From NCBI RefSeq assembly GCF_963676685.1, contig NC_092346.1, positions 35,712,001-35,776,000 of the forward strand: a stretch of DNA of 64,000 nt, written 5' to 3'. Made by a program: the position numbers and the translations under genes. Source of the stretch: Mytilus edulis (Eukaryota). Under the pieces are notes generated by a model, which searched no databases, had not been told where the DNA came from, and worked only from the letters and a program-made list of their open reading frames with translations. Below are positions 10,521 to 41,140 of the stretch, piece by piece; position 1 is the stretch's first letter; each line of letters begins with the position of its first letter.

Positions 10521-11063
10521 GGGAGATAACTCTATTATGGTTTCTATACACACTTGAAAATTCATACTGTTTTTTCTCTCGGAGATATCTTTGAAATTTT
10601 CACTGAAGAGTTTACTTTATGAAGAAATTGTTAATTTCATACAATAAATGTGCTTTTCAAATGACTGTACATTAAAGCCTGCTATTGTAAAACCCGGAAT
10701 GGTTTAGGGGAGATAACTCTGTTATTATTTCTATTCATTTGAAAATTCATACTGTTTTTTCTCTCAATAATATATTTAAAATTTTTACTGAGAAGTATAC
10801 TTTATGAAGAAATTGTAAATCTCATACAATAAATGTGCTTTATAAATGACTGTACATAAAAACATGCTATTGTTAAACTAGGAATGGTTTATGGGAGGTA
10901 ATTCTGACTTGTTTCTATACACACTTGGAAATTCATACTGTTTTTTTTCTCTTAGTGATATTTTTGTTTTAATTTTCACTGAAAAGTATACTTTATGAAA
11001 CTGTAAATTTCATACAATGAATATGCTTTATAAATGACTGTACATAAACATATGCTATTGTTA
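10503..11063 (+). repeat. ~185-bp x3 tandem repeat covering the CFAP61 stop codon and 3' UTR
   Basis: aaacc(t/c)ggaatggttta(g/t)ggga... units at 10503, ~10690 and ~10874; the first two contain AATAAA. Confidence 0.85.
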
Positions 11064-14800: not shown

Positions 14801-16977
14801 AACAGTTAGATATAATGTTAAACATAGGTAACAAAATATTTACTTACTTGTAAATCAAACATCATCTTTGTACGAATAAAGTAAAATAATACAAATTGAC
14901 TTAATCATACAAGTGAGAGGTTTAGCTAGCTTTAAAAGCAATTTTAATCCACCATTTTCTACATTAGAAAATGTCTGTACCAAGTCAGGAATATGACAGT
15001 TGTTATCCATTCGTTTGATATGTGTGTTTGAGCTTTTGATTTTTGCATTTGATTATAGACTATGTGTTTTGAATTTTCCTTGGAGTTCAGTATTTTTGTG
15101 ATTCTACTTTTTATTAATACGTATAACCGATACAAGATTTTCATAAAGACCAATCTTTAACGAAAATACATCTTACCATGGTTGTTAAGCTGTGTTCTGC
15201 ATTGCCGCTGCAGGCCTGGCTGGTTATGTAACCTCGAAAGATCGAGTTAATGGTGTTAAAGAAACTAGATTTTCCCGCTCCCACTTGACCAACCAATAGA
15301 ATACGTGCCTGAGGAACTTTTAAATCCTTCAATGGCTTGTATTTTTCTACCTTTTCTTTCAATTCGTTTAGCAACTGAAATACATGTAATTACATTGGAA
15401 AGATAACTTCACAAGTACTGTGAACGCTATCCTACATTGATTGATTGTTGGTGTTTTAATATCACAACATATCCAAATTGGCACGTGTTAGGTGTACACG
15501 ACTGCACATTTACTAGGATTGTTAATTTTCTACCGAAGATCGGTGTTGTTCTCCGGGCATTACGGTTACCTCAAACATAAAATCTGACTGTCACGAAATA
15601 GCACACTCGATCATATCAAAGTTGTCAATTCAGATTTGTATACTGGTTTTATCATTCTCATTGTTTATCGGGCAAAGACTACATGAAATGCAATTATCTA
15701 TTTTCCAGGCCTTATTTCTACCTTTTAAAGAAAAATAGCATCGTGCATGTGAGGTGAACATTCTGTAGATCTTTATTTGAAACAGTACAAAATGATGTTG
15801 ATGAGTATACTCATGTTTTATTTATTTGATTGAAAGTTACATTATTGCAGTGCATGGTATATGCATATATTTTTTTATTGTGATACATGTGTTTAACTTC
15901 AATTACAAAATGTATGGACAACGTATAAATTATACACCAGTAATACGTCTGCCGAACAAAATTTCAATCCTGCTAACTATGAGTTGTTTAATAGTCATAT
16001 TGAATATCAGTCGTGCACCGAAACGTATATTATACAAAACAAGAAAAAAGAGAAGCAAAGAATCTTTGACATCGAATATTTTAAATCGTTATTTATTTTA
16101 GAAGCCGTTTTAGGCCAAATGATGTGTGTGATAATTGAGAATGAACAAAAGTGAAAACAACTACTTTTACTAACCTTGGGATTCCATTTTGCAGTCTTTC
16201 GCCATGGTTCGTCCAGTGGTGTCCCTCCACCTAGATCTAATGCAACAATGAAAATGATGATAATAACCCTAAATACCTTCATGGTGTTTGTAGTAAAACA
16301 AACAAATGCAGAAACATTTCTTTAAGATTTCAATGATGAATTTAATATTTGTTCTAGAAGCTAAAAGAGTTTTTCTAGATGAACCCAATAGATATCAAAA
16401 TTGACTAACTGAATTTTTTTATATCATTTGTTTTTATGTTTAAAAATCACAGTTTACCTTCTACCAAATAAACTTCAATGTCTTTTACTTTAAGATGACC
16501 ATTAGCAATAGAGTTGTAGTTTTCTCCATTCATAGTGTACGATACTCCAAAGCTGGCACCTCCATTCAGAGAAAAGTTTGTTCCATCGAAGTTTACTGTA
16601 TTCGAAAATGTTTGTAAATCATGCCCACCAAAGGTAGGTCCATAAGAAGCGTTATCGTATATGGCATTTTGTGCATTCATAACAGACATGCGCACTGGTT
16701 TCCAGTTACCATTCTGATAAAATCTAAAGAGGAAAGCTGAACCATCATTCTGATAGTTGCCAACACTTTTCCAATTGACTGCAGTATACCCACCATACAT
16801 AAAATTGTCTGCGTTATACAAAACTGTAACTGTTGGACCTTTATTGTTACATGTATTATGGAAAGCTGTGGAAGTACATCCATCTCGGGAAGCCTTATAC
16901 AAAAGTGTGTATTTCTTCCTCCCTCCAATCCATTTTGTGAGTTGATTTTGTTCTTTCTTTTTGAATTGGATAGTCAT
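11839..16977 (-). CDS. IFI44L: Interferon-induced protein 44-like (TLDc domain + P-loop GTPase-like domain), copy 1, intact
   Basis: Exons 16977-16458 (TLDc: LLYKASRDG, FHNTCNNKGPT, GGYT, YGPTFG, DIEVY), 16236-16175 (linker, EPWRK), 15374-15177 (RILLVGQVGAGKSSFFNTINS Walker A), 14785-14639 (LHDTRGLE), 14035-13864 (IHCVIFVLDG), 12149-11839 (GIPQVVLLTKIDK..KNYESE). All GT-AG, phases 1/0/0/0/1 are compatible. Confidence 0.92.
12244..13100. mobile_element. Non-autonomous DNA transposon (CAG termini) in last IFI44L-1 intron
   Basis: Imperfect TIR cagaggtgtttac / gtaaacatgtctg, flanked on both sides by tattta. Confidence 0.55.
13256..13530 (-). mobile_element. ~275-bp 3'-terminal fragment of the Penelope-like element at 61154-63170
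   Basis: Reverse complement matches ~62910-63168 (ccacatgtggagcaggatctgc...tttgactgtc..tttggta..gtccctctt). Confidence 0.8.
14905..15112 (+). repeat. Dispersed repeat family (other copies ~19620-19795, 20650-20840, 40795-40990, 51600-51715, 52150-52440, 54415-54585, 56655-56880)
   Basis: Shared core ccaccattttctaca..aaatg.ctgtaccaagtcaggaatatgacagttg in both orientations. Confidence 0.8.
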
Positions 16978-17297
16978 ATTGATGGCTGTAAAAGGAGAAG
17001 TGTTTAGATGTTTTTGATCAATATAAATAGTGTGACAATTTTCATGTTCTACTTGTACATTAATTTATTTTAAACAAATAATTCTTTTGGTCGTAGGCAA
17101 AATGTAATAGTTAGCCTTTTCACAATTTTAAAAGAACAATTGACTTTAAATTATCATTATTTTTTAAGTTTATATTTCTTTATACTATAAAATTTGGCGA
17201 CATATTTGTAAATCAACTTACCTTATTGTTATTTGTAAATTGAATAGTTTTTAATGAAGGTAAATAGTTATCAAAAGTACCAGGATTATAATTTAAT

Positions 17298-19562: not shown

Positions 19563-21772
19563 AATAAAAAAAAAATGTTTGATGAGTATGCACGGCGAGA
19601 TGCACGGTATCTATCAACACAAAATTAAGATAACACAAATACTGAGCTCTAAGAAAAATTCAAAACGGAAAGTCCCTAGCAAATAACAAAATCAAATGCT
19701 GAAACGGATGCAACGATTGACAAACAACTGTCATATTCCAGACTTGGTTTCTTCATGTAGAAAATGATGGATTAAATCTTGTTTTAAAGCTAGCAAGTAT
19801 AATAACCAAATACAATGACTTAGAAATTTGAGGCAATACTTTTCAGTGGGGATCAGATCTCATAAATCCATGTTGAATACTGGCATACAAACGAAGTAAA
19901 ACAGCGCGAATATCATATACATGTACTGTATAATATCTAACTTGGAAGTATCCACACAGTTTTATATTGGTCTAAAAAAAAGGCTCTGAACTTATCTATC
20001 CATATCAATAATATATATATATATATGATAAACGGAATACTTTATATTAGTAAAAATCAGCTGAAAAGAATTGTATTTTGCAATAAGAAAAACAAATCGC
20101 CTTTTAAAAACATACTAATACGATAGTGTATAATTAGTACGCTATAGAATTTTAATTTTGTTATTTTCTTATCTAGTCAAATCAAGCATGGAACTTTAGT
20201 TGCGTATTTAACATTTTTATTATAATCATCTTTTGTATTTTATTCCAAAATTTTGTGTTCCTTTTTTTTAAATATACGCGCTTGAAACACTGATTATCTC
20301 AGACCACGTGACAGTGTTGATATATGTAACGAGAGAAAATGACACTGCAATATATAGCTTTTCCCAAGTGAAAATCTGTGGGTAGGTACCTATTTCTTGG
20401 CATGCTTATTTCATTTATTTAGAAGCATCAAATATCGCTGATCTAGTATCCTATTTTTCTAATTATACAATATTATCACTGCGTAAAGTTTTGTATTCTA
20501 CTTCCTTATTTGGATTAATCAATATATTCTGGCTGGTATTGAGTTTATTATTTTCCGTCAATATCGTTAAAAAAACAAACATGAGAAATATGGTATAGTG
20601 ATTAATAATAAATTGTGATTAAGATTTATAATACAAATTCTTAATGCTTTATTCCAATTTTTGACATTTTCACATATTATGTCTATTTGTTTTGTTCACA
20701 CATCGTTGTTAATATTATGGAATTGTATGCAACTGTCATAAAAGTTAGACGGTTAGTTAGCTAAAACCCAGATTTAATTTACCATTTTCTACATTAGCCA
20801 ATGTCCTGTAACAAGTCAGGAATATGGCAGTTGTGTTCTATTGGTGATGGCGATTCTGTTTCTTGCACATCGGTTTTCCTGTTTTTTGGTTTTTTTCTCT
20901 TACAGTTGATGTGTTTCACGCGGTTTTGGTTTGTAGCCCAGATTTTTTTTTTAAATTGATTTATAACTTTTGAACACCGGTAAACTACTGTTGCCTTTAT
21001 TACATGGTTCAGAGCCGTTCTGTTCGAGTAACATCAGATGGTGATATAACACCAATAATGCAAATGGATTTTGCATACCTTCGACTAAAAGCTAAATGGT
21101 TTAGTTAGATTTCGTAAAATATATTGAAATAGATTAACCAAATCCGTTTATACAGAACAGTGTCTATTATATATAAGTATTTCTAGTCAGACATTGATAA
21201 ACAGGAAATACTTATAGAATATTATAATGCTATTGCCAAATATATTTATATATGTTATACACATGATACAATAGTTTTACAATTTTTTACAGGATTTAAT
21301 TTGTAGAAATTAATGAAACACTGAAAATTTTCCAAAACAAAAAAAGTTGAAGCATTTGAAAACCTTAATGTAATTTGTTACAACAAACGTTAATGAAACG
21401 TGACTAAAAAGATTATCAATATTGAAAGATGTAATTTGTTTTAAAATATACTGAACAAATTGATTTCTTCACTTTGTCGGGTTCAAATACCTTTTATCCA
21501 TACAATTAACAAAACTGAATAATTAAGAAGTAAGCACCCATTCGTATAAGTCAATGAAAAAAGCATTTTATAATTTCGAAACTGCAAAGTGCTTCTCTGG
21601 ATTTGCCTTCAAAACTCATTCCTATCATAAGAAAGTCAGTGGTGTATAATAAGTAGGAACTTATATATTTAAACTCATTAATATTGTAATTACCTGCAAT
21701 TCCACATGAACAGATAAAAATAAAAGTAACTTTAGATTTCTTTTCTTTTTCAATTGCCAGATGTATTAAGAA

Positions 21773-23443
21773 ATGGCTTCGTCAATTCCATGTGGACCCT
21801 GTAATCATGATAGCGTAAACAAGAATGCAGAGAAATGGTGCACCGATTGCAACGAAGGGTTTTGTAATGGATGCGAAAAGGCACATAAATCAATGAAAAT
21901 GTCGAGGGACCATAATTTGATCCTCATTGAAGACTACCGCGTAATTGAAAATATGAATATTGTCTCAGAATGCCAGGATCACGGGTCAAAACTTGAGATG
22001 TATTGCAAAATACATGAAATGGCTATTTGTATTACATGCTTTCCCGCAAAGCATAAGGATTGTTCCGATGCCATCATTCCTCTTACCGAAGCTTCGAGAG
22101 ATGCGAAAACATCGACTTCTTTTACGGACTTGGAACATACTATTAACGACACATTGGAAAACATAGAAATATGTCTTCAGGATCGCGAAGCAGCTGAAGA
22201 ACGAATTGAAAAGCAAGAAATGGCAATAAAGAAAATTATCTCCAATACGCGTGAAAATATAACAAAACATCTTGATAATCTGGAAAGAAAATTATTCAAT
22301 GAGTTGTCAACAACATATTCATCTTGTAAGTCAAAATATGGAACGTTAAAGAACCAACTAAATAGACTTGAAAAGGAAATTAAACGCCTCAAGGGACAAA
22401 CAACTAATCTAAAACGGTTTGCCCCCGACCTACACGTATTCCTGAGTACACAGCAGATGACTAAAGAGGTACACGAAGAAGTAAATGTGATTAAAGAAGC
22501 CATACGATCCGTTAGAAATTATGATATAGAAATTGAAATACACCAGGGGATTACTTCATTGCTAAAAGATGTCGACTGCTTTGCAAGGATTAAAGTGGAC
22601 GAAAGTACCATCAGCTGTCCTTTTAAGGAAACAAAGATTGATCAAGCCCAAATACAAGTACAAACTAGAAAATCAGTTCATGATACAAGACTACAATTGA
22701 AAAAGAAGTTCACAATTAAGCAAACAGGAAATAAAATGTACATTTCAGGATGTATTATTTTGGCAAATGGGAACTTTTTGATTGCAGACTACGAAGGACT
22801 GAATAAATTATTGGAGTATAACGAAGACGGAAATTTTATCCGTGATATACAACTTTCTGCAAAGCCATATAATCTGACAACAATAGAAACTGATCAAATA
22901 GCAGTTTCTTACTCCACTCTATCCTACATCGAGGTTATAGATATAAAGCAAATGATCGTTCTAAAAAAAGTGAAATTCAAAAACAGTTGTTTGGGAATAT
23001 CATACAGTGAAGGAAAGATTTTTGTTGTAGTGAATAATGAAGGAATTGTGGTCTTGGATATCGAAGGAACTATGCTTAATACAGTCAAGTGTACGCCTGG
23101 TGTTTATAATATAACAACGTGCAAAACCAGAATATACTACACACAATTAAAACCGAGCACGATTTACTGTTGCAGTAGAACTGGAGAGGAAATATGGAAT
23201 TTCAATGATAATTCATTTGGATTTAGTGGAATTTCTACTGATCGTGATCAGAATGTTTTTGTAGTAGGTAATAAAATTAATAATCTTATGGTGCTACAAG
23301 ATGACGGGAAAGAAAGCAAAATCTTACTTAGTCGATCCGAAGGACTAGAAAAACCCTCACGTTTATGCTACAACAAGGAAAAGAACACCTTACTAGTGTG
23401 CAACTCCATTAATGGAAATGTGTTTTTATACAGTGTTATTTAG
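21773..23443 (+). CDS. RING-less TRIM-like protein (B-box1, B-box2, coiled coil, NHL-like beta-propeller), intact single coding exon
   Basis: 556-aa ORF: CGPC..AEKWCTDCNEGFCNGCEKAH..H, CQDH..MYCKIH..ICITC..H, heptad-rich middle, propeller repeats (NGNFLIADY, GISTDRDQNVFV). Splice acceptor at ~21760. Confidence 0.9.
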   Translation: MASSIPCGPCNHDSVNKNAEKWCTDCNEGFCNGCEKAHKSMKMSRDHNLILIEDYRVIENMNIVSECQDHGSKLEMYCKIHEMAICITCFPAKHKDCSDAIIPLTEASRDAKTSTSFTDLEHTINDTLENIEICLQDREAAEERIEKQEMAIKKIISNTRENITKHLDNLERKLFNELSTTYSSCKSKYGTLKNQLNRLEKEIKRLKGQTTNLKRFAPDLHVFLSTQQMTKEVHEEVNVIKEAIRSVRNYDIEIEIHQGITSLLKDVDCFARIKVDESTISCPFKETKIDQAQIQVQTRKSVHDTRLQLKKKFTIKQTGNKMYISGCIILANGNFLIADYEGLNKLLEYNEDGNFIRDIQLSAKPYNLTTIETDQIAVSYSTLSYIEVIDIKQMIVLKKVKFKNSCLGISYSEGKIFVVVNNEGIVVLDIEGTMLNTVKCTPGVYNITTCKTRIYYTQLKPSTIYCCSRTGEEIWNFNDNSFGFSGISTDRDQNVFVVGNKINNLMVLQDDGKESKILLSRSEGLEKPSRLCYNKEKNTLLVCNSINGNVFLYSVI

Positions 23444-25461
23444 TTTGAATGCTTTTTGTTTAGAGTCAGTATTGACAGTGTAGAGATATATTTGCTCGTA
23501 CAAACTTTTAATACATTTTATCTTTCTTATAGTTTTATATAATACTGATTCAGATTAATGCTTATGGAAATATAACTCTTCAGCGTCAACTAAATGTTCA
23601 AACGGCGGAGCACAAAAACTGTTTTGGTCCTTCCATGAATGGAACTATACAATATAAATATTATTTAACAGAGGATTTACATTGAAATTATCTGCATTAG
23701 GAATTAAATTTGAGATAAGATTTTAATGACAAAGTTAAAGCTTCAGTTTTTAGAATTTGAAAGAGTTTATCATTAGCAGACACTTGTGAAAAGAATTTCA
23801 AATTAGCTGTATTTTTCCATGGCTGCATGCATTACTTTTGTTTGTTTTTACATGTACCTTCATAATTGTTGACCTTTTAAAGTCGTCAATTACTAACAAG
23901 ATTTGATGTAACTGTTTACAACTTAGAAGTAGAAAAAGACCGATATGAAAAAAAGAAACACAACAATAATTTTTTGAGGTCTTAGTTCATGTAATTTGTG
24001 TATGTTTTTATAATATAATGTTCGTCTTTTTGATATGTTTGAAAACAATAATAATAATGTATGTTATATGAAAGGAAATTTGAGTATTTTTTAACAACTG
24101 AACCAATTTATCAATTATTATTCATATATTTCAATGATAACGAATTATGCCTGTGTAAATAAACTCATCATAGATATGTACATAATATTGAATAGAAATT
24201 TTATATTGTATTGGTTCAAGTACTCAGGTTTTGTTATAAACAATGAAGTTAGTTTTGGCAATGTATATAAACTCATCATAGTTACCAGGTTTAATCTTTT
24301 ATACGCCAGATGCGCTTTTCACGATGTCAGTCATTTTTTTCATTGGTTGGGCATTTATATTTAGCCAGTGCGACAGCGAGGGGTGAAATACGAATATAAA
24401 TGCCCAACCCATGGTTAAATGAAAACGAATCTACGGCTGCCATGTATTATTTCGATTCTAATAGTACAAATTCGGTAATTTTGTTAACCGTGAAACACTA
24501 GATACTGGTTTGGCTGTTCCGTTTTACCCCAATATGATACTATTAGTAATATTATATTCATGTAATTCAATAATACCTTTTTTTTTAAATCGCATTTTTC
24601 ACTTATACTTATGTTCTTTTAATGTAACTTCTGTGGATTCTGAGGCGTACAAGAAGCTTAAAAAACCCCGGGTGTTTTATTTTTGATTTACGGTAACATA
24701 CATATGACGTCACTTTATTTCGTTGCCATGCAAAGACGATAACATTTCCAAGAATGTTTTTGTAGGGAAATTTACCATGAAAAATAAATTGAAATGGACT
24801 ACTTTGTTTATTTTGTTTTCGAATAGATATAACAAAATTGTATCTGATTCTTGGCTTGCGTAAACTGTTAGTGTTGATGTCGAAAATTGAGAATACCTGG
24901 TAATATTTTTTAAGTTGGGCGTAATGCAGAGCAGCACGTTTTGTGTATTTATGCGCTTGCGCTAAAATAAGATAGACTGTGATTATACTGATTGATGATA
25001 AAAGGTCGTCATATCAGAATACTGTTTAACTTATCATTTAGGTATCAAAAACTCAAAGTCATTTATCATATTAATTGATTTGGATTTGTCGTCAAATATT
25101 ATAAAAAGTTACAGCTATTACATTAATGCTAGCAAGACAAAACTTTGTTTGGCTTGCTTGCTTTGCTTGTATCAATGTTTGCTCAAGCATGACAATTAAG
25201 ATAGGCGGGGCTTCAGCTTGTATACATCATACTTAAATCTTATTGGACATTACGTTTGAGGTTAAGGACACTAAATTTTAAAACATCACATGACTAATAT
25301 TATTATCACATGTTTCCTTACCTGTAAAAACAATTTGATGTAACAATAAGTGAGGTAATTCGATGATTGATATATCATGGTATTAAATGTGAACCTGTAC
25401 CAATCACACCGATTTTTTTGCTGTTTTATTAAAAAAAATAGTTTACTTTAATATATTCATT

Positions 25462-25498
25462 CTGAGACTACTATAACACTGTGTTATAGTAGTCTCAG
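25462..25498. repeat. 37-bp perfect palindrome flanked by a 7-bp direct repeat
   Basis: attcatt-CTGAGACTACTATAACAC-T-GTGTTATAGTAGTCTCAG-attcatt. Confidence 0.8.
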
Positions 25499-27589
25499 AT
25501 TCATTGATTATTTGAGGACCAATTAATGTTTTAACTGGGTGAATTTTCTGTATAAGGTCAATTATAAAGTACACCTATGATATCCACACTTTCTATAGAC
25601 TGAAATATGCAAAAGTGCGATCCGAAAACTTTACCAATAATATACAGAGAGACATTTTTTTTTTTAAATTACAGCAAAACTTTTGGTAAACAAATATTTA
25701 TTATCGTATTGGCAAAAATGATGAAAAAGGAATTTGAAATATCTGTCATTTTCCCTCCAATCTATTCCTATTACTTATTATGTCCATTGTTAATGAATAT
25801 TACGCAATTGGATTGAACTAATTTTTGCTTTTCAACCTTCAAACTGTGTTTTTTTTTACATCGACATTAAGAGTCAAGATTTGTGTTTGTTTATATTTGT
25901 TGTTTGTAAATACGCATTTACGGGACGAAGTATGGCATACCTTTGTCCGTCGGTCCTTCCGTATCTCCCTCATCAACATGTGGAATATTATCTCGAAAAC
26001 GCTTGCAACTAATAAACATGAAAATTTGATGAAATATATATCTATTGACGTGAGCGCCCTTTAGTTATTTTTTTTTTTTTTTTTTTATAAATTTGGGATC
26101 TAGAATTTTCGGCTTTTTTTCACTGTTTAAAAAAAGGGGTTGGATATTCCAGTTTTCGGACAATAACTCAAAAACGCTTTCAGCAGTTTTCATGACACTT
26201 TTGTGAAGTGCACATATCTGTTGACGCAAACTCTCTATCAATTTTGATATAAATTTAAGATTTCACGTTTCATAATTATGTTATTTCATTCATTAGAAAG
26301 TGGCGATTTTCAAGTATGTAGACACGACTTTGGACAGTTATCATGCAACTTCTGTGACCGACCTTACATGTTTAACCCCGTCACATTGTTTATGTATGTG
26401 CCTGTCTCAAGTCAGGAGCCTGTATATTCAGTGGTTGTCGTTTGTTTGTGTGTTACATAATTATATTTGTTTTTCGTTCATTTTTTTTACATAAACAAGG
26501 CCGTTAATTTTCTCGTTTGAATTGTTTTACATTGTCTTATCGGGGTCTTTTATAGGTGACTATGCGGTATGGGCTTTGCTCATTGTTGAATGCCGTACGG
26601 CGACCTATAGTTGTTAATGTGTCATTTTGGTCTTTTGTGGATAGTTGTCTAATTGGCAATCATTCCTCATCTTCTTTTTTATATTATACCTATTAATATG
26701 ATACCCCTTTAGTTTTTTCATAAATGTCAGATATATGATTGAGAAGTCATTCAATATAATTCTTTGAATAAGCGAAGGATGTGGCATACGCTCATGGTGC
26801 AGCTGTTCATTAAAATTTTACAAAAATCTCTGCTGGTGTGCACTTTGTTGTAGGTCTGGGGATGATATTAAATTATTGCAAAAATACATGCTGTATTCCT
26901 AAATAATTTAATATCGAGTCATTTTTTCGTGTATTGTTTTGTTAATTCAATACCGGAATACTTTAAAATCCTGATGTCCGACGAGAACAACCAACCTTCA
27001 AAAATGTAGCTGCAATCCTCGGCGACAAAATAAGGAATCAAACGCATTCTCAAAATATCCTAGATTAATCGGTCCTCTGACTGCTTTAAAGGACTTGTTG
27101 GAATCAGAAATCCTAATAAATTAAGGGGGCCGTCAAACAGAATAACCGCGGACTAGGATAGAACCACAGTATTAGTGATAATAGATAGAACAGTTTTCTC
27201 ATTGACAAAGTTTAACTACATTTCCCTTTTTATAGTTATATAATTACATTAGATGATGTATGTTTCATTATAATACTTTATTTTGATTGGCTGAATACAC
27301 ATCACGTGTTATTCCGTAGGCAATTGCATCACTCAATAAAACTTTTCGTTCATAACACGTGGTCCAACAAAAAAGTGCACTGGTGAATAAAATACAAAAA
27401 TTATAAAATTCTTATTTTCATGATCATAGACAAAAATTTAATTATAAGTATTGAATGCTTCTTTTTGTAACTTTATAGGGTTGTAAAAGCGTTGACTGTG
27501 CGCACATTTTAAGTATGAAGCGCTTCCGCGCTTCATACAAAATGTACTTCGGTCAACGCTTTTACACCCCAATTTATTTACAAAAAGAA

Positions 27590-27920
27590 ACAACAACAAC
27601 AAAAACAACAACATTTGTAAAACAAGACATCCCGGTGAACTAAAACAACAACAACATTTTCCAATCAAGATATCTTACTTAATGAACCATAACAACAACA
27701 AAATTTGTCAATCAATATATCATCATGAACAACAACAACATTTGTCAATCAAAATATCCTAATGAAGAACAACAACATCATTTGTAAATCAAGATATCCC
27801 CATGAACAACAACAACAACATTTGCCAGTCAAGATATCCCAATGGACAGCAGCAACAACATTTGTAAATCAAGATATCCACATAAACAACAACAACATTT
27901 GTTAATCAAGGTATCCCGAT
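27590..27920. repeat. Minisatellite, ~38-42 bp unit containing (AAC)n
   Basis: Repeated aacaacaacatttgt(c/a)aatcaagatatcc(c)atg. Confidence 0.85.
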
Positions 27921-28117
27921 GAGCTAATTAGATTGATTCTCCTCAAGTTTTTATTTCATGGTAATATTTACAGTCTAGGATATCTGTTATCCATGTTTAT
28001 CAGTACACTTAAGTTTCGACATCAAAAATCAGATTTATGTCTGCAAGTTTGAGCACATTAAAGTTACTTCATTATAGTTTTAATGTAATTGTTTTGAAGA
28101 GTTAACTTATTTACGTT

Positions 28118-28156
28118 CAAGGAGGTTATATGAGAAGGTCTCATATAACCTCCTTG
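28118..28156. repeat. 39-bp perfect hairpin
   Basis: CAAGGAGGTTATATGAGA-agg-TCTCATATAACCTCCTTG. Confidence 0.8.
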
Positions 28157-28823
28157 TTTGTATACAGTAAATATATTTCTGTTATTTAATACTTGTTGTT
28201 TGTTGTTGTCACGGTATCATATTTTTTTCTCGTTTACTCGATCTGAATATGAATCAGGCAGTTAGAGCTCTTGTTTACTCGTTTGAATTACTTTGCCGGA
28301 TGTTGAAAGCGGGAAGTTGGCCTTTTATTGCAACCTTATTAATCATTTGGTTTCTTGTGGGGTTTGCCATTATATCACATCTTCTTATTTTTATTAGTCC
28401 TTGTGTTTTTTTACTATATTTTGAATATCAATTTCTCTCAATACAGCAATTTAAGAACTAGTTGTCAAATAAACCAATGAAGTACTAAAGGTAGTTTCCA
28501 GGCCATTCTTCGTGATAATGATTCAATAAATTAATACACCGTCCATAAGTTAGACACTTAAACTTTAAGAGGACAATACAACAGAGAACAACAAAACAAC
28601 AACCGACTTTTGTGGTTTTTTTTTCTTTATTTATTGCCTGTTTTGTTTTGTTAGTATTTCATTGGGTTTTGCGCATTTGTTAGTTTTTTGTTCTGTTTAG
28701 CGCATGTGATAAAATTTTGATATGTAAACTAACATTTGCATATCATAGGTTTTTGAAAAAGTCGATTGGAACAATTACTAATGTAGAAATGACAAAAACA
28801 AAATAATTGTTATAAATGCATTA

Positions 28824-29134
28824 CAGCTTATTTCCTACAGCTTGTAGAGTACAACTTTAGCTGGCTTGCTTGCTTTGTTTGTATAAAGGTTAGCTTAAAC
28901 ATTGTAATTAAGATAAAATTGAGAATGGAAATGGGGAATGTGTCAAAGAGACAACAACCCGACCAAATAAAAAAACAACAGAACGACATCTGCAAACAAT
29001 ATAGACAGGCATTATTAAACAAGTATATATTATATTTGAATTGAATTTTAAGCGTTATCCCAATTACAATTGTCAATATACAAAACAAACAAGCTAACCA
29101 AAGTCTTACCCTGCATGCATTATGAAATTAGCTG
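28824..29134. mobile_element. Diverged inverted pair related to the host transposon TIR (MITE-like)
   Basis: ta|cagcttatttcc..actttagctggcttgcttgctttgtttgtat..aattaagat, with an inverted partner ending ..gaaattagctg; both resemble the TIR at 25112. Confidence 0.55.
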
Positions 29135-29448
29135 TTACCATGAACGAAGCTTCTCCACACTGCACAGTATGTCATGAAAAATTAAACGCGTAACTTTTCT
29201 TTTAAGTCTATCATTTGTAGAAAGAAAGTGGGTGCAGGTGAAATAAGATCTTCCACGTTACGTAAACGATAACCAAATTGAATGTTGTTATGCATTTATC
29301 TTATTCAACAAATAAGATCTCGGTTTTAAAGAAGCAATATCAAATTCTATAGAATTTAAATGGAAACTTTATTTATTAAAGGTGACAAAAAGTGTGATCA
29401 AAACTTTAATTAGCCCAAACTAAAAAAATCTGAGTATAAATATGTTTT

Positions 29449-30617
29449 TTAGTCACTTTCATCATCAGCATCACAATCAGTGTCGAAGCTCTCTATGCCG
29501 GTAGCACATTTCAAAGCTGCATCAGCAAGAAGATCCATAGACGACTTGGGATGTGTGTGGACTGGTGCTGAAGGTTCCCTTTTTACGGAAATATCGTTCC
29601 CAAAAACACTTGTAGGTGCCGGTGACGTCGGAGTACTAGTATGTGTGCTCATAGATTGAAATGGCGGTGGATATTGCCACGGATAACTTGGGAAATATGG
29701 CATCATTTGCGGATAAAATTGCTGAAATGGAAATCTCATCTGATGAATGACAGGAAACTTTTTGTCATCTTCATCTGCTTCATCTTCAACTTTTCTTTTA
29801 GTTGTAAAACAAGGGCGTACTTCCTTGGATCTATTTGCCATTTCGTCCAGTTTGTCTTTAAAATCTACATAATCGTTGCCGCGATCTTCAGGTACAACTC
29901 CATTATATCCTATCTTGAGACTGTGAAGGTCTTTCATTAGTTTTGCTCCGTCTTGATATTTTGTTGGGTTTGTCTGTCTCAGTCTGCTCCTCATTGAGGA
30001 CATAAAATCTGTTTTCTTTACACCCATGAAGGATTCAAGTTGGTTTTTTCTTCGTCAAGCTTTCGGATCTTTTGCTTTAGCTGCAAAATTTCTCTCTGTT
30101 TAGTTTTCTTTTCTTGCAGATACTCGGGATGCTTGTCTGCTTGGCCACATAGGTGAATGCTGGCACAGGGATAGTTGGTACAAGATTTGTTGTTCTTATT
30201 ATTGTCGGCTTTGTGCCCAGTTTTGTGGCAGTTGGTGCACCTCCTTCCATCCTTTTCCCTCTCAGAAAGAATAATTGTAGAGTATTCTGCCTCTGCCAAG
30301 GTTAACTTTCTCTGAATCTTTTTCACTGATTCTTTTGAGGACTCAACAATGTTGTTTAAACTTGGTTTCTGAAGCCCCATTTGAGAGTTATTCGGTGAAA
30401 TGTCCTTCAAATTTTTTAAGGCATTTTGCAGTTGCCTTCTTCTCCCAAGTAACAGTTGAATATTGGCTTGCTGGAACATTTGGTTTAGGTCTTCATCAAC
30501 ATCAATGCACCTCAAACTTCCAATTGTGTCAAAACCATTGCTTCGAAATACACTTGCAAACTCGGTAAATCCACTCCCTATTTGCATTAAAAATTCCTCG
30601 ACACTTAAATCATCCAT
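29449..30617 (-). CDS. Transposon passenger ORF2: SAM-like domain, coiled coil, CCHC-type zinc knuckle and Pro/acidic tail; one frameshift at ~30045
   Basis: ATG at 30617. SVEEFLMQIG..FTEFASVFRSNGFDTIGSLRCID..LGRRRQLQNALKNL resembles a SAM domain. CTNCHKTGH..C..YPCASIHLCGQADKH is the Cys/His region. Adding one A to the A6 run joins both ORFs (EEKNQLESFMGVKK). Confidence 0.7.
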
Positions 30618-31842
30618 TTTCAAGAAATTATTTGAAATCTAAAAACAATGTGCCTCAAAGCATGGGAAAATGTTATTTTACGTTTTAGCCAATGAAAACA
30701 CCTTTAAGAGTAAATATACTGAACAAAAGTAGAAACACAAGACTTTTTTCGTCATGATTGGTTTAGTATTAGTTGATTTAAGTCCAGTTGCAAATATTTC
30801 ATGCACGTGTCAGATGGTTACACCTTGTTATTTTATTGAAAGAACTTTCATACAACCGAAAATATTGTTTGCGTTAATTATCATCTTTCCCTCTAGTTTT
30901 GCTAAGACGACTGATGTAATGCCGAGCCCTGCAAGTTTAATACGCGAAATGAGAAATATCGATTGGAGATCCTGTCGGCGGTGTCGGCCACGGCGACAAC
31001 GGCCTTGGCGGCGCCGTCAACATTTAGAGGTTCAGTCTATGTCTAAAAGTTTTTTTTATATAAAAATGAAGATGTAGCATGATTGTCAATTAGACAACTC
31101 ACCACAAGTGACCAAAAATTGACACAGAAATTTACAACTACAGGTCACTGTACATTACTAACTTTGTCAAATCTTCATGGAATTTACATAATTAATGAAC
31201 AGAGGTTTGATTATGACAAAAGAATACAGCATCCAGAGCAAAATTAAAAAAATATGTTATTTTTTTGTATCCATTTTATATATATTGATAAATGGAGTAA
31301 GTGTTTTGGTAAAAAATATGCAGATTTGGTTTCGGGTTAAGGCTATTTTAGACACGAATAACTTGTGCCAGCCTTTGTGTACTATTATGAAATTTGAACA
31401 CAATAAAATTGAGAATTGAAATGAGGAATGTTCCAAAGAAAACATCAAACCCACCAAAGAGCAGACAACAGCGAAAGGCCACCATTTGGTCTTTAGCGCA
31501 GCTCAAGAAATTCATACACTCGGAGTTGGGCTTCGGCTGTCCCCTACAGACTTAGGACGGACACAAAAGTGCGACAGGGTTAAACATGTTTTTTTTTAAT
31601 TTATTTTTTTATTTTTTATCTCAACCCTCCCCGATGCCTTTAGCCAATATTGAAAATCAGTTCAAAGAGGTCCGAAGTTGATGTCAGAATAGGTAACAAA
31701 AGATACTAAATTAAATCAGGAACATATATATTGAAGTTAGATATACTGTTCTCAGATTAAATGACAATTGTACATAAATAAACAAAGGACTACTAGCAGT
31801 TACTGACATGCCAGCTCCAGATCCATGACTCTGAAGAAAAAA

Positions 31843-31980
31843 GAAAACGACTGCATTGTGTAATAAAAAAATGAAAATCAGGCGTCAATGTTTATTATAA
31901 TCTTATTTTACGTATCATAAGCTTATCATAAACATTGACGCCTGATTTTCATTTATTCAATATACACAATGCAGTCGTTG
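31843..31980. repeat. Long imperfect inverted repeat (hairpin) between the transposon ORFs
   Basis: aacgactgcattgtg..atgaaaatcaggcgtcaatgtttat / ataaacattgacgcctgattttcat..cacaatgcagtcgtt. Confidence 0.8.
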
Positions 31981-32671
31981 CTTTTTTTTCTTTTTTTTTT
32001 TAAATAAACTAAATTGACAAGCATCTCCATATTTGGTTTGAAAATGAACGTTATTAAATGTAATCTTTAATTAATCTGTACACATTCGGCAATGCATAAA
32101 CGATGCATGCCTAATGAAAAACAAAAACATAAAATGGCTGAAATATAATTGACAAGCACTAAAGAATGACGGTTTCAATCTTGACATTTTTAATATTAAA
32201 CTATCTGATTTCTTTCTACTATTCAGTATACTTTTGAAAAAAATACTTTTGTGTTGATAAATGTTTTAGCCAATCAAAAAAGGGCTATACCAAACAATAG
32301 AAGTTAGTTGTTTCATTTGCAGCATTAACTCATGCCATGGACTTGGCCAGTACCCAAGTTACATTTATCAACGGAGGGTAACAAAGGGGTGTATATCTAA
32401 ACCATATTATATAAGTATATATATATATATACAAGCTGTATAAGTGTATGTAATTTTAGAACTGTCTTCGGTGATGATGTATACTAATCCATACTATATA
32501 AGTTTTTCTTAAAATCAGTATTTCCATTATAAATTTGTCATGAAGATATGGAGAAATATACTAAATTGCACCTCTGAAGTTTTTAATACAGCAAGTTATA
32601 CCTGTATATCAATCAAGCAAAATCAAATTCAAAAAGTTTATTATTACATTAAAGTGAAATAAAAGTTAGAA

Positions 32672-33706
32672 ATGAAGAGGTCAAAGGCTGGACGTTTTTA
32701 CCAATCTGGAAAAAAACTACAAATTGAATTAAGACGTGCAATTGTAGATCAATATGGAGAAGGGAAAAATGTTTATACTATTGCTAATGAAACTAACTTA
32801 GATACAAGAACAGTTAAGAAAACGTTAGAAGAATACATGTCGACAGGTGACTTAGACTATTCAGGAAAAGCTCACGGTTCAAAAACGCGTATCGCAAATG
32901 AAACAGTAATACTTGCTATAGAATATTATTTACACCTAAAACCATCAATGTATCTACAGGAAATTCAAAAAAGGTTATTATCTGATGGGATCTGTCTCCA
33001 AAATAATGTTCCAAGTGTTTCGTACATTCACAAGATTATAAAAGATAGATTAGGATATACACGGAAAAAGCTTACTGTGAAAGCCAAAGAAGGATTGACA
33101 GACCAAGTTCAAGTAAAATTTGACCATTTTTTGGATAGTATTGAGGACATTAATCCATTAAAAATTCATTGCTTTGACGAATCGTCCGTCATTATGACAA
33201 CAGGTAACAGACATTACGGTTACTCGGAATTAGGCCAAAGAGCTTTCGAAATTCAAAAGTATGCTTCAAATGCAACCTTTACTGTAAATCTTCTCCAAAG
33301 TCCATTAGGTGTAGATTACTTTAATATTATAGATGGACCTTCAAATGGATTACAACTAGTTAACTTTTTTGTCGAAGCCTTAAATGAAACGGATATCTAT
33401 GGGAATAGTAAACTTAGTCCGGGAGATGTAATTGTACTGGACAATTGTGGTTTCCATCATGGTCAATTAGCAGAAACACATTTACGAAACTTGCTACAAC
33501 AATATGGAATAACACTGGCATTCCTCCCACCTTATCACCCTGAACTTAACACATGTGAACACAGTTTTTCAAAAATGAAATATTATCTCAGACGACATGA
33601 AACTTATACTACGATGTATCCTGAACTAGCAATTTGTGACGCTATAAATGAAATATCAAGAAACGAATGTTTTGGATTTGTCAAGCATTGTGGATATATA
33701 CTTTGA
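32672..33706 (+). CDS. IS630/Tc1/mariner-family transposase, paired-like HTH + DD38E, intact
   Basis: 344 aa. N-terminus GRFYQSGKKLQIELRRAIV is paired-like. Catalytic motifs CFDES, VLDNCGFH and FLPPYHPELNTCE, with 38 residues between the second D and E. Confidence 0.92.
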   Translation: MKRSKAGRFYQSGKKLQIELRRAIVDQYGEGKNVYTIANETNLDTRTVKKTLEEYMSTGDLDYSGKAHGSKTRIANETVILAIEYYLHLKPSMYLQEIQKRLLSDGICLQNNVPSVSYIHKIIKDRLGYTRKKLTVKAKEGLTDQVQVKFDHFLDSIEDINPLKIHCFDESSVIMTTGNRHYGYSELGQRAFEIQKYASNATFTVNLLQSPLGVDYFNIIDGPSNGLQLVNFFVEALNETDIYGNSKLSPGDVIVLDNCGFHHGQLAETHLRNLLQQYGITLAFLPPYHPELNTCEHSFSKMKYYLRRHETYTTMYPELAICDAINEISRNECFGFVKHCGYIL

Positions 33707-35654
33707 ACTGTACATTGACGAAACTTATTGAATTTAGGAAATTTCTTTTCACAGTAAAGAATTTTGATTATAACTTGTGTTTCATTTTAATAATTTCATG
33801 CACTTTAACTGTTGGAGATATGTCCAGTCCGGCGTTCTATAATCAATTCTTGCATCTATTAGTTGTACCATGAATTCACTTTAATTTCTTGTTAATTTTA
33901 TTTTCAAAAATATATTTAGTATTTTAGTGCTATCAAACATATGTATTCATTTATAATCAGACAACTATTATCCAAATAATTATTTTACCGAATTCGTTCT
34001 AATACGTTTAAGGTAAATATGTGAAGGGACTTTCCCTCCATTCATTTATAACTCCACAAAGATTACAAAGATTGTGTATTGTTCTAGTAGTATTTAACGA
34101 GGTCACTCAGTGTCCAATCACATCCTGTGTATACTATACACAAGCTGAAACTCCGCCCTTGTGTTGATTGCAAGGAAACTGTGAGAATAATATTAGTCAT
34201 GTGATGTTTTAAAATTGAGTGTCCTTAACGGCCAATAAGATTTAAGTATGATGTACACAAGCTGAAGCCCCGCCTATCTTAATTGTCATGCTTGAGCAAA
34301 CATTGATACAAGCAAAGCAAGCAAGCCAAACAAAGTTTTGTCTTGCTAGCATTAATGTAATAGCTATAATAGAAAAAACTCAAACAACTTAATGAAATTA
34401 CAGTAAGGCAGAAACCAAGACAATAGAAATGTCGGATATCGTGAGAAAGAGGCAAAGCAATGACAAACAAAGATAGAAGACCAATAGGAAAACATGATCA
34501 CAAAACACCACATAGAAAACTGAGTAACATGAACTCACGCAAAAAAAAAAACCAACAATATTCCCTAACATTTTGAAAAGAGAAAATAAAAACTTTCCAT
34601 ATAATATCTAACGCATATCTTATTATTATTTTTTTGCTTCCTCTATTGGTTATTTTGCCCACAATTTCTCCACAGAATACAGTGGGATAACTAATGAATC
34701 GCCTGTGATTTGATAGCGGATTTTATTCCGTGGACCTTATTCATTTAATTTGCATCTTCAAAATTAAAATAAATTAGATAAAATCACCTACCTAAATCAC
34801 TAGTTTGTGTGTGTCTATTTATCTTTAATTAAATAGATGTGTTCTACCCCTAAACTTAAACTATTTTTTTTAGAACTTTAAAAAAAATATAAAATACAAC
34901 ACATTTTTTATAGTAAAGCTGCATATTACAAGCAATTCGAAAATATCAACACAATTGTTTCAGTATCTCACATAATAAACATTTTCAATTATAGTCCTTT
35001 GTTTTCAGTTTGACTGGTAATCCATGTCAACTCTCGTTTTTAGTTAATGATAAACTCGTCATAAGCTATCTATTTTAATGGACTGGACCCACTGTTAGTA
35101 CTATCACTCTCCGAGGAGTACATTTTAAGTTATTATTTCATGATTGATGATAGGTTTAAACATCCGGTTATACTCTTGGGTATTGCGGACTGATGTACTT
35201 TAGTTACCAATTTGGAACTGTCTGTCATTTTACTTTCATTTCACTCCGACTGCGTTGTTGTGGATTATACGGAGTATTATGCCGTTTTGACATCTGGCTG
35301 CTTCTATTGTCTCTTTAGAATGAAGGTTCAAGGGCGACGTATGCGGCGGTGTTGTGAGTAGGTCAGGATCATCCATGTCAAACCATTCAACAGAGTCGAT
35401 CCTACTGTGCTTGGCTCTTTTTGTTGTTGTCGACCGTGCAAGCGCTGTATAGCCAGTCAATGTCGTTAAAAACTTCTATTTGTTGTCTTTCTGTTGTTGA
35501 CTCATAGTAAATGATGCGATGACATGCCTTATTTGGGCTGTACGCAGGCATAGATGACGTTAGTTGTATTTGGCAAAACTTTTAGGAATTTTGGTTCTAA
35601 ATGCTCTTCAACTTCGTACTTTATTTGGCCTTTTTAACTTTTTTTTGGATTCGA

Positions 35655-37003: not shown

Positions 37004-38092
37004 TTTTTGTCGAGCCTGCAACTTTTGTTGCAGAAAGCTCGACATAGGGATAGTGATCCGGCGGCGGCGGCGTTAGCTAACTTCTTTAAAAAAAGCTTTA
37101 TATAATAGTAGGTGGAAGACCCGGATGCTTCATACTTTGTAAATAGATGCTTCATGTTACGAAGTTTCCGTCAATCACATGTCCAATGTCCTTGACTTCA
37201 TTCTGATGGTTCAGTGACCACTTGAAAAAAAAATTCAGATTTTTTGTAATGTTGAATTCTCTCTTATTATAAGTAATAGGATAACTATATCTGGTATGTG
37301 CGTACCTTGCAGGGTCTTCATGCCCGTCAGACAGTTTTCACTTGACCTCGAGCTCATTGCATGGATCAGTGAACAAGGTTAAGTTTTGGTGGTCAAGTCC
37401 ATATCTCAGATACTATAAGCAATAGGGCTAGTGTATTCGGTGTATGGAATGACTGTAATGTGTACATGTCCAACTGACAGGTGTCATCTGACCTTGATCT
37501 CATTTTCATGGTTCAGTGGTTATAGTTAAGTTTTTGTGTTTTGGTCTCTTTTTCTCATACTTTATGCAATAGGTCTACTATATTTGTTGTAAGGAATGAT
37601 TGTAAGGTGTAAATTTCTAGCGGGCAGATGTCATCTGACCTTGACGTCATTTTCATGGTTCAGTGGTGAAAGTTAAGATTTTGAGTTTTGGTCTTTTTAT
37701 CTAATACTATATGCCATAGGTCAACTACATTTGGTGTTTGGAAATATTTTATGATCTATATGTCAGTTTTGCAGGTTTTATTTGACCATGACCTCATTTT
37801 CACGGCTCATTGCACAGTGTTAAGTTTTTGTGTTTTGGTCTATTTTTCTTAAACTATAAGTAATAGGTCAACTATATTTGATGTATGGAAGCATTGTTAG
37901 CTGTACATGTCTGCTTGGCATGGTTCATCTGACTTTGACCTCATTTTCATGGTTCGTTGGTCTTTGTTCATGGTTATCTTGGCTAATGTTAAGTTTATGT
38001 GACAGTTGTAACAAAGCTTTATAATTAGGACTATCAACATTATATCAATGATTAGTAAAGAAGGCGAGACATTTCAGCGTATGCACTCTTGT
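37004..38092 (+). mobile_element. Helentron-associated (HINE-like) non-autonomous element with internal ~148-bp tandem array, nested in another repeat
   Basis: T-run start, subterminal hairpin gtcgagc.tgcaac/gttgca..gctcgac, (GGC)n, then ~6 units anchored on tgacc(t)tgacctcattttcatgg (37190-37960). It splits the host repeat ..ccagatttgttttt|ctctcaat... Confidence 0.7.
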
Positions 38093-38432: not shown

Positions 38433-38722
38433 ACAGGAGCCACCTCGGACGTATGCAAGTGTTATGTTTAATTTGCAGGACAACCTTTCTAAATATCACA
38501 TAGCAGAAACCAATCTATCATAACAATTGAAATATACTTTGGATAGAAGCTGGCAGATATTTAGCTTTTGGAATGCATGATACTTAATCAATATACAGAA
38601 GATGTTAAACAAAATCCTCTATTTCTGTGACTTTTTCGTTCAATTGAAACGAAGTAGATGAAACATATTATACATTGTAAATTAATTTTATTCCTTTTAT
38701 ATGACTATCATTTGCCTTAGGA

Positions 38723-41140
38723 TATTGCTTCATTTGTTCCATGTGGACCCTGAGGTCACGAAAGATTAGGGAAGAGTGCAGAAAAATGATGCAAAGTAGC
38801 GACGACGGATTTTGTAATGTTTGTGAAAAGGCACATACATCGATGAATATTCGAGATATGACAACTTGATTACCATCGAGGATTACCATGAAATTGACAG
38901 TCTGATGCAAGTGTGGCTTTAACTGTGCGATTTTCAGCTGTGACAAGATAATCTTGTTGACGAATCTTTGGCAGTCCTGAAAAAAAGTCAAATCTAATTT
39001 CATTGCAATCGAATTGTTAAGTGACGCTTTTCAGTGAATTAAAATAATTTGCAGATTATGACAATTTAGCAGGTTCAATCAATCAGAATTCGTTTCTACT
39101 TATTAAACCATGGTAACGCAAAAATTTAAGTTACAATGTGAAAAGGTTATCCACTATATTGCTCGGAGAAGTTTTAAGAGCTCAGTTAAAACTAATGCGG
39201 ACATTCCGATTAACAAAGAATTTACATCTATTTGAACAGAAGAGTGTGAGAGGATCTTATGTAATAAAATCTGTCACTTGAGATATGACAAAGAGAAAAG
39301 TTAATACTTAATTGAACACCTGTTTCTTATGTCCTTAAGATGTCCTTAAGAATTTCTGAATATAGCAAAGAATAATTTAATTTTGGATGTAACCCGTCTT
39401 AAGATTGTTTTGTTAATCAGCTCATAGTCATAATTTTGTCTTGTGACCGTGACGTCATCAACGTTATTTCTTAGTTTGCTCCAGTTTAAAATGGAATGTA
39501 GAATTAATTTATAAGAAATGACTGTAATTTTTTGCTGTCTATTCGAAATAACATAAAAAATGTGGTGCACACTTTAAAATAACCCGCGTAGCGTTTTCTT
39601 CAGTGTGCACCTTATTTTTTATGTCAAATACCTAATGGCGGATTATTTTGGTAGGTTTTTTTTTTATTGTTTTTCCAAAATTGTTAAACATTTCACAGCG
39701 GTCTAATACTGTTACTTTAATTAATCATCCCTCTTTTCTTTTTTTTTTATTAATTTTGTATTTACATTGTGTCATAGATCAATTTATTCGTTCAGTGTAT
39801 GTTCACTTGTATGAATGTCTTTTAAATGAGGTAAGCCATTTTTATTGATATTTAATAATGTGTCTTTCTATGTTGTGATGTTACACTATTGTTTCACATA
39901 AGGGTGAAGGTTTGGTATTATTAAAACATTTAAATTCGCTGAAATTGTTTGCACCTGTCTTAAGTAAGGCATCTTATGTTCAGTAATTGTCGTGTGTTGA
40001 TGTGGTGTATAAGTGTTTCTCGTTTCTTGTTTTTCATATATATTAGATTGTTGGTTTTCCCGTTTGAATGGTTTAACACTATTAATGTTTTGGGTCCTTT
40101 ATAGCTTGTTTTCGGTGTGAGCAAAGCTCTGTGTTGAAGACCATTTTCTAACCTAAATTGGTTACTTTTATAAATTGTGATTTCGATGGAGAGTTGTCTT
40201 CTTGGCACTCATACCACATTTTTTTTATATCTCTCGAAGGTCTGTTCCTGATACAAGGTTACAGTTGATAAAACAAGATCTATATTAAGCAAAAAGGAAA
40301 GGAAATGTACATTTAAGGATGTACAGTTATGGCAAATGGTAACTTATTGTTTGCCGACAACGAAGAACAAAATGTACTAATGCGGTACCACATTCCTTAA
40401 CGAAGACGATTATTTTATCCATAATATACCCGTCTCAGCAACACAATATGATCTGAAAGTATTAGGTAATGATCACATTTCTGTTTCTTATAACACTCTG
40501 GAGTACATTGAGATGACAGATATTAGAAAAATTATCGTACTGAAAACAGTAAAATTCAATCAAGTGTAGCATTGGTGTGACCTATTACAACGATCGATAA
40601 AAAAATCTACTCCAGAAGAGAGACTCAGGCCCCTGTTTATTGCTGTAGAATAACTGGAGTTTAGATATGTGATCTCAATGATAAATCTCTTAGCAAACCT
40701 CACGAAATTAGTGCTTCCCATGACCAAAACGTGTTTGTTGTGGGTTATCAATCTAATAATCTTATGATGGTGCAAGACGATCGGAAAGTTAGGTTAAAAA
40801 AAAATCACAAAAATACTGAACTTAGAGGAAAATCAATTCGGAAAGTCCATAATCACATGGCAAAATCAGATAACAAAACGCATCAAAAACGAATGGACAA
40901 GAACTGTCATATTCCTGACTTGGTACAGGAATTTTCAAATGTAAAATATGGTGGATTAAACCTGGTTCTATAGCGCTAACCCTCTCACTTTAATGACAGT
41001 CTCATCAAATTCCGTTATATTTACATTGATGCGTTAAATAAACAGACACAATAAATAAAATAGTCAAAATAAAACCGATGGACTTAATCATCCCGTCAGT
41101 GTATGGTACAACAAGGAAAGGAATATCTATACTATTTAAT
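38723..41140 (+). pseudogene. Fragmented TRIM-like (B-box/NHL) pseudogene
   Basis: 38723-38900 aligns to the start of 21773 (ttccatgtggaccctg..ttttgtaatgtttgtgaaaaggcacatacatc) with stops. 40240-40790 and 41074-41140 align to the propeller region (ggcaaatggtaacttatt.., aataatcttatgatggtgcaagacga). Repeats interrupt it. Confidence 0.85.

Follow-up and report, generated by a model that had tools for sequence, protein, structure and literature searches.

A recently moved two-gene IS630/Tc1/mariner element of Mytilus edulis, its Pax-like transposase and its putatively self-assembling second protein

The two-gene PIF/Harbinger and CACTA elements keep a second, non-catalytic helper protein together with their transposase, and among IS630/Tc1/mariner (ITm) elements the L31 elements of bivalves and corals are said, in papers by Puzakov and Puzakova, to carry a second open reading frame (ORF), ORF2, of unknown function. 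The L31 clade has been listed as containing DD37E and DD38E members from bivalves, Mytilus among them, and from anthozoans, the ciliate Tec elements have been placed as its sister, and TBE elements carry a zinc-finger protein (PMC7325037). Tc1 elements have a single ORF, their typical length is 1-3 kb (10.1101/656579), and DD38E/IT is named among the Tc1-like elements (PMC10379824). Here we describe an element of 9,255 bp at positions 25112-34366 of a 64,000-nucleotide stretch of the Mytilus edulis genome (assembly GCF_963676685.1, contig NC_092346.1, positions 35,712,001 to 35,776,000, forward strand; hereafter the window). We read it as a recently moved two-gene ITm element, likely of the L31 clade, whose ORF2 likely encodes a self-assembling helper; taken as a whole, this reading seems to us reasonably probable.

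The element has the characters of the ITm group, namely a DDE catalytic domain, a bipartite paired-like helix-turn-helix N-terminus, and terminal inverted repeats (TIRs) with a TA duplication, the last being shown on a related miniature inverted-repeat transposable element (MITE). With L31 it shares the DD38E spacing (37 residues in its sister clade), bivalve and anthozoan hosts and a second ORF inside the TIRs; in the DDE_3 transposases of L31 the second D and the E stand 37 or 38 residues apart, the hosts are of the same two kinds, and an ORF2 of unknown function is said to be present. By spacing, hosts and ORF2, set against the description of L31 rather than against reference sequences, the element is very probably a new member of that clade. 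A preliminary description made from the letters of the window had guessed at L31, and the guess fits, since spacing and hosts agree with the published L31 labels, so that we regard it as likely. Tc1-like elements, DD38E/IT included, resemble it in TIRs, TA duplication and DDE_3 domain, and the DD38E spacing is common to IT by name. However, it differs from the single-ORF, 1-3 kb plan of Tc1 and DD38E/IT in having two conserved genes over 9.25 kb, its transposase gives no Pfam match to HTH_Tnp_Tc3_2 and falls apart from six Tc1-like transposases of the same genome, and its TTAA target is strict. Multi-ORF ITm elements are also known from ciliates (Tec and TBE), with a DD34E triad and three ORFs. 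PIF/Harbinger and CACTA belong to other transposase superfamilies, and their helpers are Myb/SANT or TnpA proteins, not coiled coils headed by SAM or PB1. A literature search with the main L31 papers outside its scope found no report on an L31 ORF2, on a SAM/PB1 accessory protein or a polymer-forming transposition cofactor in the Tc1/mariner group, or on a TTAA preference.

Structure and recent movement of the element

The element is a single cut-and-paste unit bounded by a left TIR of 208 bp (25112-25319, plus strand) and a right TIR of 195 bp (34172-34366, minus strand). The TIRs agree at 190 of 195 aligned bases, with 13 gap bases in one gap of 12 bp and one of 1 bp, as expected from the near-identical repeats of about 200 bp noticed at first. 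Directly outside them stand TTA at the left end (25109-25111), made up of the T of a TTAA target and its duplicated TA, and TAA at the right end (34367-34369). The transposase gene (32672-33706, plus strand) and ORF2 (minus strand, read from 30617 to 29449) lie head-to-head, confirming the divergent second gene of the preliminary description, and are separated by a 2.05-kb spacer (30618-32671), which contains short nested repeats as well as a hairpin of 130 bp (31837-31988).

The transposase is an uninterrupted protein of 344 amino acids with a paired-type DNA-binding domain (residues ~6-127) and a DD38E catalytic domain, whose triad is D169-D257-E296 with 38 residues between the second D and the E. 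Pfam matches to DDE_3 (67.8 bits, cut-off 28.6) and PAX (54.2 bits), together with the open frame and the triad, bear out the intact paired-like DD38E transposase first proposed. The 38-residue spacing was found in 22 of the 23 database homologues that have both motifs. The closest named proteins are from Mytilus, and the named matches comprise Mytilus, Montipora, Orbicella, Xenia, Dendronephthya, Paramuricea and Saccoglossus. In a tree of the catalytic domain, the two-gene DD37E and DD38E group was split with full support from six Tc1-like transposases of the same genome. The prokaryote and viral collections gave only distant IS630-type catalytic matches, except for one contig (L184) of a metagenome-assembled genome. 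This contig carries, in a bacterial bin, a 46%-identical transposase with a Pax-like N-terminus; it is likely animal host DNA, transfer being possible.

Recent movement is evident from a full second copy at G000:C1:48283849-48293398 (9,550 bp; hereafter the C1 copy), which has both ends and ORF2 (389 amino acids) intact, the same cargo and unrelated flanks. The two copies differ by 36 substitutions in 9,251 columns (0.39%) and by 10 indels, and are thus 99.6% identical. Since a near-identical copy with the same cargo stands in different flanks, the whole 9-kb unit has moved, in agreement with the recent mobility or selection suggested in the preliminary description. The same copy decides a different view of the span, in which two insertions of ~1-kb MITE ends enclose unrelated genes by chance, or ORF2 is a captured host gene. 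TIR-like ends are abundant in the genome (720 first-look candidates) and a third TIR-like copy lies inside the element, as such a composite would have it. However, the element TIRs carry diagnostic bases relative to those of the MITEs, the TIR-like copy inside is part of a small MITE nested in the element, and ORF2 is tied to transposases that are 30-62% identical as well as to elements in metagenomes. We consider this view scarcely credible, and its chance-composite form is refuted by the full C1 copy, which also excludes the two TIRs being independent insertions, the case named in the preliminary description as fatal to its proposal.

Two defects of the window copy had been overlooked in that description. 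At its outermost base the right TIR has A in place of the G seen in the C1 copy and in four MITEs (a G>A change), and ORF2 is frameshifted by the loss of one base in the T-run 30044-30049, giving a product of 199 amino acids against 389 in the C1 copy. The window copy may therefore rely on sister copies, and its mobility is possibly reduced.

The genome search gave 63 transposase matches, four of them near-identical copies, of which two on C11 belong to truncated or deleted elements. A sister family (L007-L010; G000:C1 105.94 Mb and C6 39.53 Mb) has a transposase of 62% identity, both genes intact, TIRs of 85 bp and three identical transposase matches, and its 9.3-9.6-kb copies are 99.5% identical in different flanks; judged from these sequences, it is the best candidate for a currently active element. 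A DD37E family of the SAM type (L023, L024 and G000:C8:29896102) also has three equal-scoring transposase matches, with two copies 99.8% identical over at least 6.6 kb. In runs X18 and X19, from two other organisms, contigs cover the interior of the element, including the cargo and an unshifted ORF2, and little of the window flanks; run X15 matches the window flanks exactly, may derive from the same source as the window and contains both forms of ORF2. No second copy of either insertion flank was found in the assembly.

The ends of the element also define a MITE family, the source of the 720 candidates mentioned above. Both ends were found in 20 of 24 fetched MITE loci, 943-1,076 bp apart, and only the TIRs, which are separable from those of the element by diagnostic bases, are common to the two. 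TTA precedes all 44 TIR ends at the 24 loci, with variable positions further out. Ends of the form TTA|C occur in three other DD38E families of the genome and, among metagenome loci, in 12 of the 15 listed pairs of inverted repeats; in a DD37E sister copy, ATA stands at one end. Comparison of copies shows an empty TTAA at 26255-26258, where the C1 copy holds a related MITE of 243 bp and a duplicated TA; the empty state presumably precedes insertion rather than reflecting a clean loss. The duplication was thus seen for a related MITE inside the element and not for the main insertion, and TA duplication within a required TTAA appears to be the simplest reading of these sequences. The TA duplication of the preliminary description is therefore supported, but its target is corrected from TA to a strict TTAA, which is unusual for a TA-duplicating family.

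The second gene and its protein

ORF2 (29449-30617) is not a peculiarity of this copy. ORF2 or a piece of it stands head-to-head with the transposase at 19 of the 20 other genome loci of the clade examined, at which the transposases are 30-99% identical. Of 80 metagenome loci fetched, 43 measured at least 3 kb, and 28 of these contain the ORF2 core; there the two genes lie within TIRs and are convergent or tandem, not head-to-head. The core was absent from 44 Tc1-like loci, as far as their 1.5-kb flanks extend, and had no match in 65 prokaryote and viral loci. A profile search gave 677 clusters at E<=0.001, with Mercenaria among the relatives. Between copies, nonsynonymous divergence (dN) lies well below synonymous divergence (dS) for both the transposase and ORF2, the values for ORF2 being 0.007/0.057 (few changes), 0.033/0.204 and 0.027/0.097. 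These comparisons of sequences indicate that ORF2 is linked to the transposase across many families and is under purifying selection. The preliminary description had suggested recent mobility or selection despite the nested insertions; selection does find support at the level of the family but not for the window insertion, this copy being damaged, and the nested repeats predate the last jump.

An AlphaFold model of residues 1-275, built with 86 sequences, reached a predicted local distance difference test score (pLDDT) of 91.8 and a predicted template modelling score of 0.64. It shows a five-helix head, two long helices flanking a Cys/His region, and a small helical domain; in the gene as a whole we distinguish a SAM head (residues 1-73), a coiled coil whose tip bears a predicted zinc module (87-216), the helical domain (224-266) and a P/Q/Y-rich, low-complexity tail that is acidic at its end. 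The five-helix fold is that of SAM domains: residues 1-73 match Eph SAM domains with a Foldseek probability of 1.0 and a root-mean-square deviation (rmsd) of 1.3-1.9 A, and a VIA search of the head against SAM gave Z 9.6 and rmsd 1.5 over 62 aligned residues. The long helices align with antiparallel coiled coils, and VIA matches of the whole model are generic coiled coils. Eight residues of the Cys/His region (C127, C130, H131, H135, C146, C151, C157 and H163) are kept in at least 96% of 140 ORF2 cores and, in the model, would suffice to bind two zinc ions. The helical domain (residues 195-275, pLDDT 83.5) gave no clear fold match, with a best Foldseek E of 3.0 and a best VIA match of Z 5.8 and rmsd 3.5 over 71 residues, which implies neither novelty nor difference, and the ESM Atlas gave no usable match for ORF2. 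A conserved short helical motif at residues 361-368 of the disordered tail, present in 8 of 156 family members, has a putative resemblance to Sin3-interaction motifs.

The head varies within the family while the core is retained. A Pfam scan of 102 of the 147 new matches found SAM in nine and PB1 in five, of which three and two, respectively, were over the cut-off; the proteins in which PB1 passed it are L026, P0074 and P0121, a set that includes an element of the mussel's own genome. Hidden Markov models (HMMs) seeded from the Pfam-identified SAM and PB1 ORF2 proteins classified the heads of 156 members as SAM in 46, PB1 in 24 and both in none. In a tree of the 69 cores (of 140) with a classified head, SAM and PB1 are interleaved, PB1 requires 10 changes, at least eight of them forced by strong branches, and PB1 monophyly is rejected (p-AU 1e-29). 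On the transposase tree (15 rows), head type requires three changes, at least two of them forced, which is not fewer than in shuffled data (53-73 of 500 shuffles). In raw DNA, SAM and PB1 forms alike stand next to transposases as one unbroken frame, in the DD37E and the DD38E clades, so that chimeric gene models do not account for the pattern. The heads are conserved, with a dN between sister families of 0.24 for SAM against 0.50 for the core. A well-supported subgroup (P0188, P0189 and P0207) has a third head type, neither SAM nor PB1 by HMM, which looks by eye like another beta-grasp domain. In one family of 46% identity (L011-L012; G000:C13:31034249-31035056), an interruption of ~580 bp, which is either an intron or an insertion, divides ORF2 between SAM head and core.

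The SAM and DIX/PB1 folds differ in structure, and both have been described as polymerising head-to-tail (PMC7614096). As both are head-to-tail polymer modules and are exchanged on one core, ORF2 is likely a self-assembling cofactor; by this analogy we consider self-assembly itself probable, and selection may keep self-assembly rather than a specific head. The head would be kept for generic head-to-tail polymerisation, the coiled coil would present the zinc module to nucleic acid or a partner, and the polymer would act in trans, bringing transposase and element ends together and so helping long elements to pair their ends. The 200-bp ends would be recognised by the paired-type transposase, which would then insert the element at TTAA sites. 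With its broken ORF2 and altered end base, the window copy would need ORF2 from its sister copies and its mobility may be lower, while the ~1-kb MITEs could still be moved by its intact transposase. The anatomy of ORF2 gives a concrete prediction for the function of the second gene, self-assembly via an exchangeable head, and repeated exchange of SAM and PB1 on one core would, if true, be a natural case of functional equivalence.

Several observations weigh against this reading. All Foldseek E-values for the SAM head exceed 0.04, Pfam detects SAM in the window ORF2 only at E=0.099 and not in the full-length copy, the closest structural matches are Eph-type SAMs, and the conserved acidic and basic positions are a general feature of SAM domains. 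Many SAM and PB1 domains only dimerise, and both the polymerisation of ORF2 and any partner of it are putative. In the HMM classification, 78 of the 156 members have no classifiable head (short or truncated models) and eight have another head; the core tree was built from 176 columns, and interleaved heads could also result from recombination between families. That ORF2 is dispensable in cis is shown by the ~1-kb MITEs and by the frameshifted window copy, and the metagenome relatives retain ORF2 although they measure only 2.8-3.9 kb, which weakens a role in serving long elements. Support from RNA is thin, as the RNA nature of run X1 is a guess and the raw reads, of uncertain strand convention, reach a depth of at most 2. 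As to recent movement, no joint of an empty allele spanning the element was among the best-supported joints listed for runs X15, X18, X19 and X21.

We rank the possible roles of ORF2 as transposition cofactor first, counter-defence against the host second and self-repression third; that its target is the transposition complex and not host silencing is a suggestion we make with hesitation. As a counter-defence or anti-silencing factor, ORF2 would co-polymerise with, or cap, host SAM/PB1 polymers (Polycomb-type SAM, p62-type PB1) with its head and so shield the chromatin, RNA or transposase of the element. A contig of the probable RNA run X1 (29352-30671, minus strand, 1,321 nt) covers ORF2 in the unshifted frame with short margins at a depth of 54, while the transposase is barely covered (about 6), so ORF2 is seemingly far more expressed than the transposase. 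Its tail is acidic and of low complexity, it works in trans, repeated head swaps could mirror host conflict, and Polycomb silencing uses SAM polymers (PMC7614096). However, two unrelated, interchangeable heads suit generic assembly better than a single host target, and the heads are conserved rather than fast-evolving, as shown by the dN values above; a counter-defence role thus appears unlikely. The head-to-head arrangement of the genes, with a single spacer between them at every one of the 19 linked mussel loci, the scarcity of transposase reads and the C-terminal helical motif, if its resemblance to Sin3-binding motifs holds, would also suit a repressor encoded by the element, which would bind the element or its RNA via the zinc module, damp the transposase and limit harm to the host. 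This role is quite improbable, as the motif is rare in the family, the metagenome relatives have a different gene order, and a pure repressor would be hard to maintain by selection across so many lineages.

The transposase and the paired domain of Pax

The origin of the paired domain from a transposase is established (PMC4901127; PMC13548663), and a review has already taken transposases of oyster and acorn worm as the outgroup of PAIRED (PMC4901127). A PDB sequence search with the transposase at E<=0.01 returned only four paired domains (6PAX, 2K27, 1PDN and 1K78) and no Tc1/mariner structure. The N-terminus aligns with the whole PAI+RED domain (E ~5e-13), and its identity to mussel Pax is 31-33%, rising to 39% at most among relatives. 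With an HMM built from three mussel Pax domains, 31 of 35 transposases of the DD38E clade scored 42-100 bits (61 for that of the window), whereas three DD37E transposases scored 15-26 bits, six Tc1-like ones at most 23, and prokaryote loci at most 21 apart from the likely host contig L184. By these sequence scores, the N-terminus is the most Pax-like among the ITm proteins tested. The element protein thus shares a PAI+RED-like domain with Pax, but it is a full transposase with a catalytic triad, encoded within TIRs, and not a Pax protein, whose gene has a paired domain but neither a transposase catalytic domain nor TIRs.

The best trees placed Pax with the DD38E clade (support 85/82, LG+G4). 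Three alternative topologies stay unrejected (p-AU 0.064, 0.10 and 0.082), and under a mixture model the DD37E group shifts next to Pax with weak support; the dataset comprised three Pax and six Tc1-like rows, with mariner, pogo, Tec and TBE outside it. On these sequences, the nesting of Pax inside the DD38E clade is favoured and not proven. To the Pax question the element contributes a candidate lineage that can be named and is still mobile. With a full PAI+RED-like domain and defined 200-bp ends, an element this young and intact would make an ancestral type of DNA recognition comparable with that of Pax, and, if the nesting is true, the source lineage of Pax would still be mobile in mussels and open to direct assay. 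The two proposals in combination, a polymer- or condensate-forming transposition cofactor with a SAM/PB1-swapped head and a clade that is the living lineage of the domestication of the Pax paired domain, are a doubtful prospect.

The family probably accounts for database entries labelled Pax-like in corals and mussels. Two proteins from corals, P0062 and P0066, which bear the names 'Paired box Pax-2a, partial' and 'Pax-8-like', match 62% of the transposase at ~41%, past the paired domain, and are likely truncated transposases mislabelled as Pax, or domesticated copies.

The left arm and neighbouring features

The left arm (25320-29351, 4.1 kb) had been described as repeat-filled cargo. About 1.1 kb of it, roughly a quarter, consists of dispersed and tandem repeats in four blocks, but the remainder is low-copy element DNA common to the C1 copy and to the runs from other organisms. 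The blocks are a high-copy dispersed repeat (26363-26687), a high-copy hairpin repeat (27456-27592), a tandem array of about eight copies of a 37-40-bp unit (27598-27922) and a degenerate MITE of 311 bp (28824-29134), which is interrupted by a 69-bp repeat (28913-28981) and has TIRs ~72-81% related to those of the element. This MITE accounts for the third TIR-like copy inside the element; the inner copy was considered as the true left end and rejected, being one end of the MITE. As the cargo is common to the C1 copy, its repeats were in place before the last jump and are carried along by the element. No coding function was seen in the left-arm cargo. Relatives measure 2.8-3.9 kb in metagenomes, as noted above, and 5.7-9.6 kb in other mussel families, so that the size of an element reflects accumulated insertions.

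Further open frames were noticed at two other loci. A relative of the element holds, at L030:1902-5302 (G000:C1 ~55.09 Mb), an insert of 3.4 kb that has inverted repeats of 657 bp and ORF fragments with a putative resemblance to a Polinton-type packaging ATPase. At L029:7878-8810 (minus strand), an open frame of 310 codons near an ORF2 copy presumably resembles a PIF/Harbinger-type transposase.

The element is inserted 1.7 kb from an ORF at 21770-23443 of the window, which we take to be TRIM-like from its motifs. This ORF and those at 38668-39030 and 59216-60559 are duplicated along the window and presumably encode TRIM-like proteins with B-box, coiled coil and beta-propeller. Exons at 11839-17064 and 45100-50511 (minus strand) occur in tandem copies and presumably resemble TLDc plus GTPase IFI44-like genes. 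The window also contains tandem arrays with units of 147 bp (37343-37962), 185 bp (10503-11061) and 87 bp (267-650).

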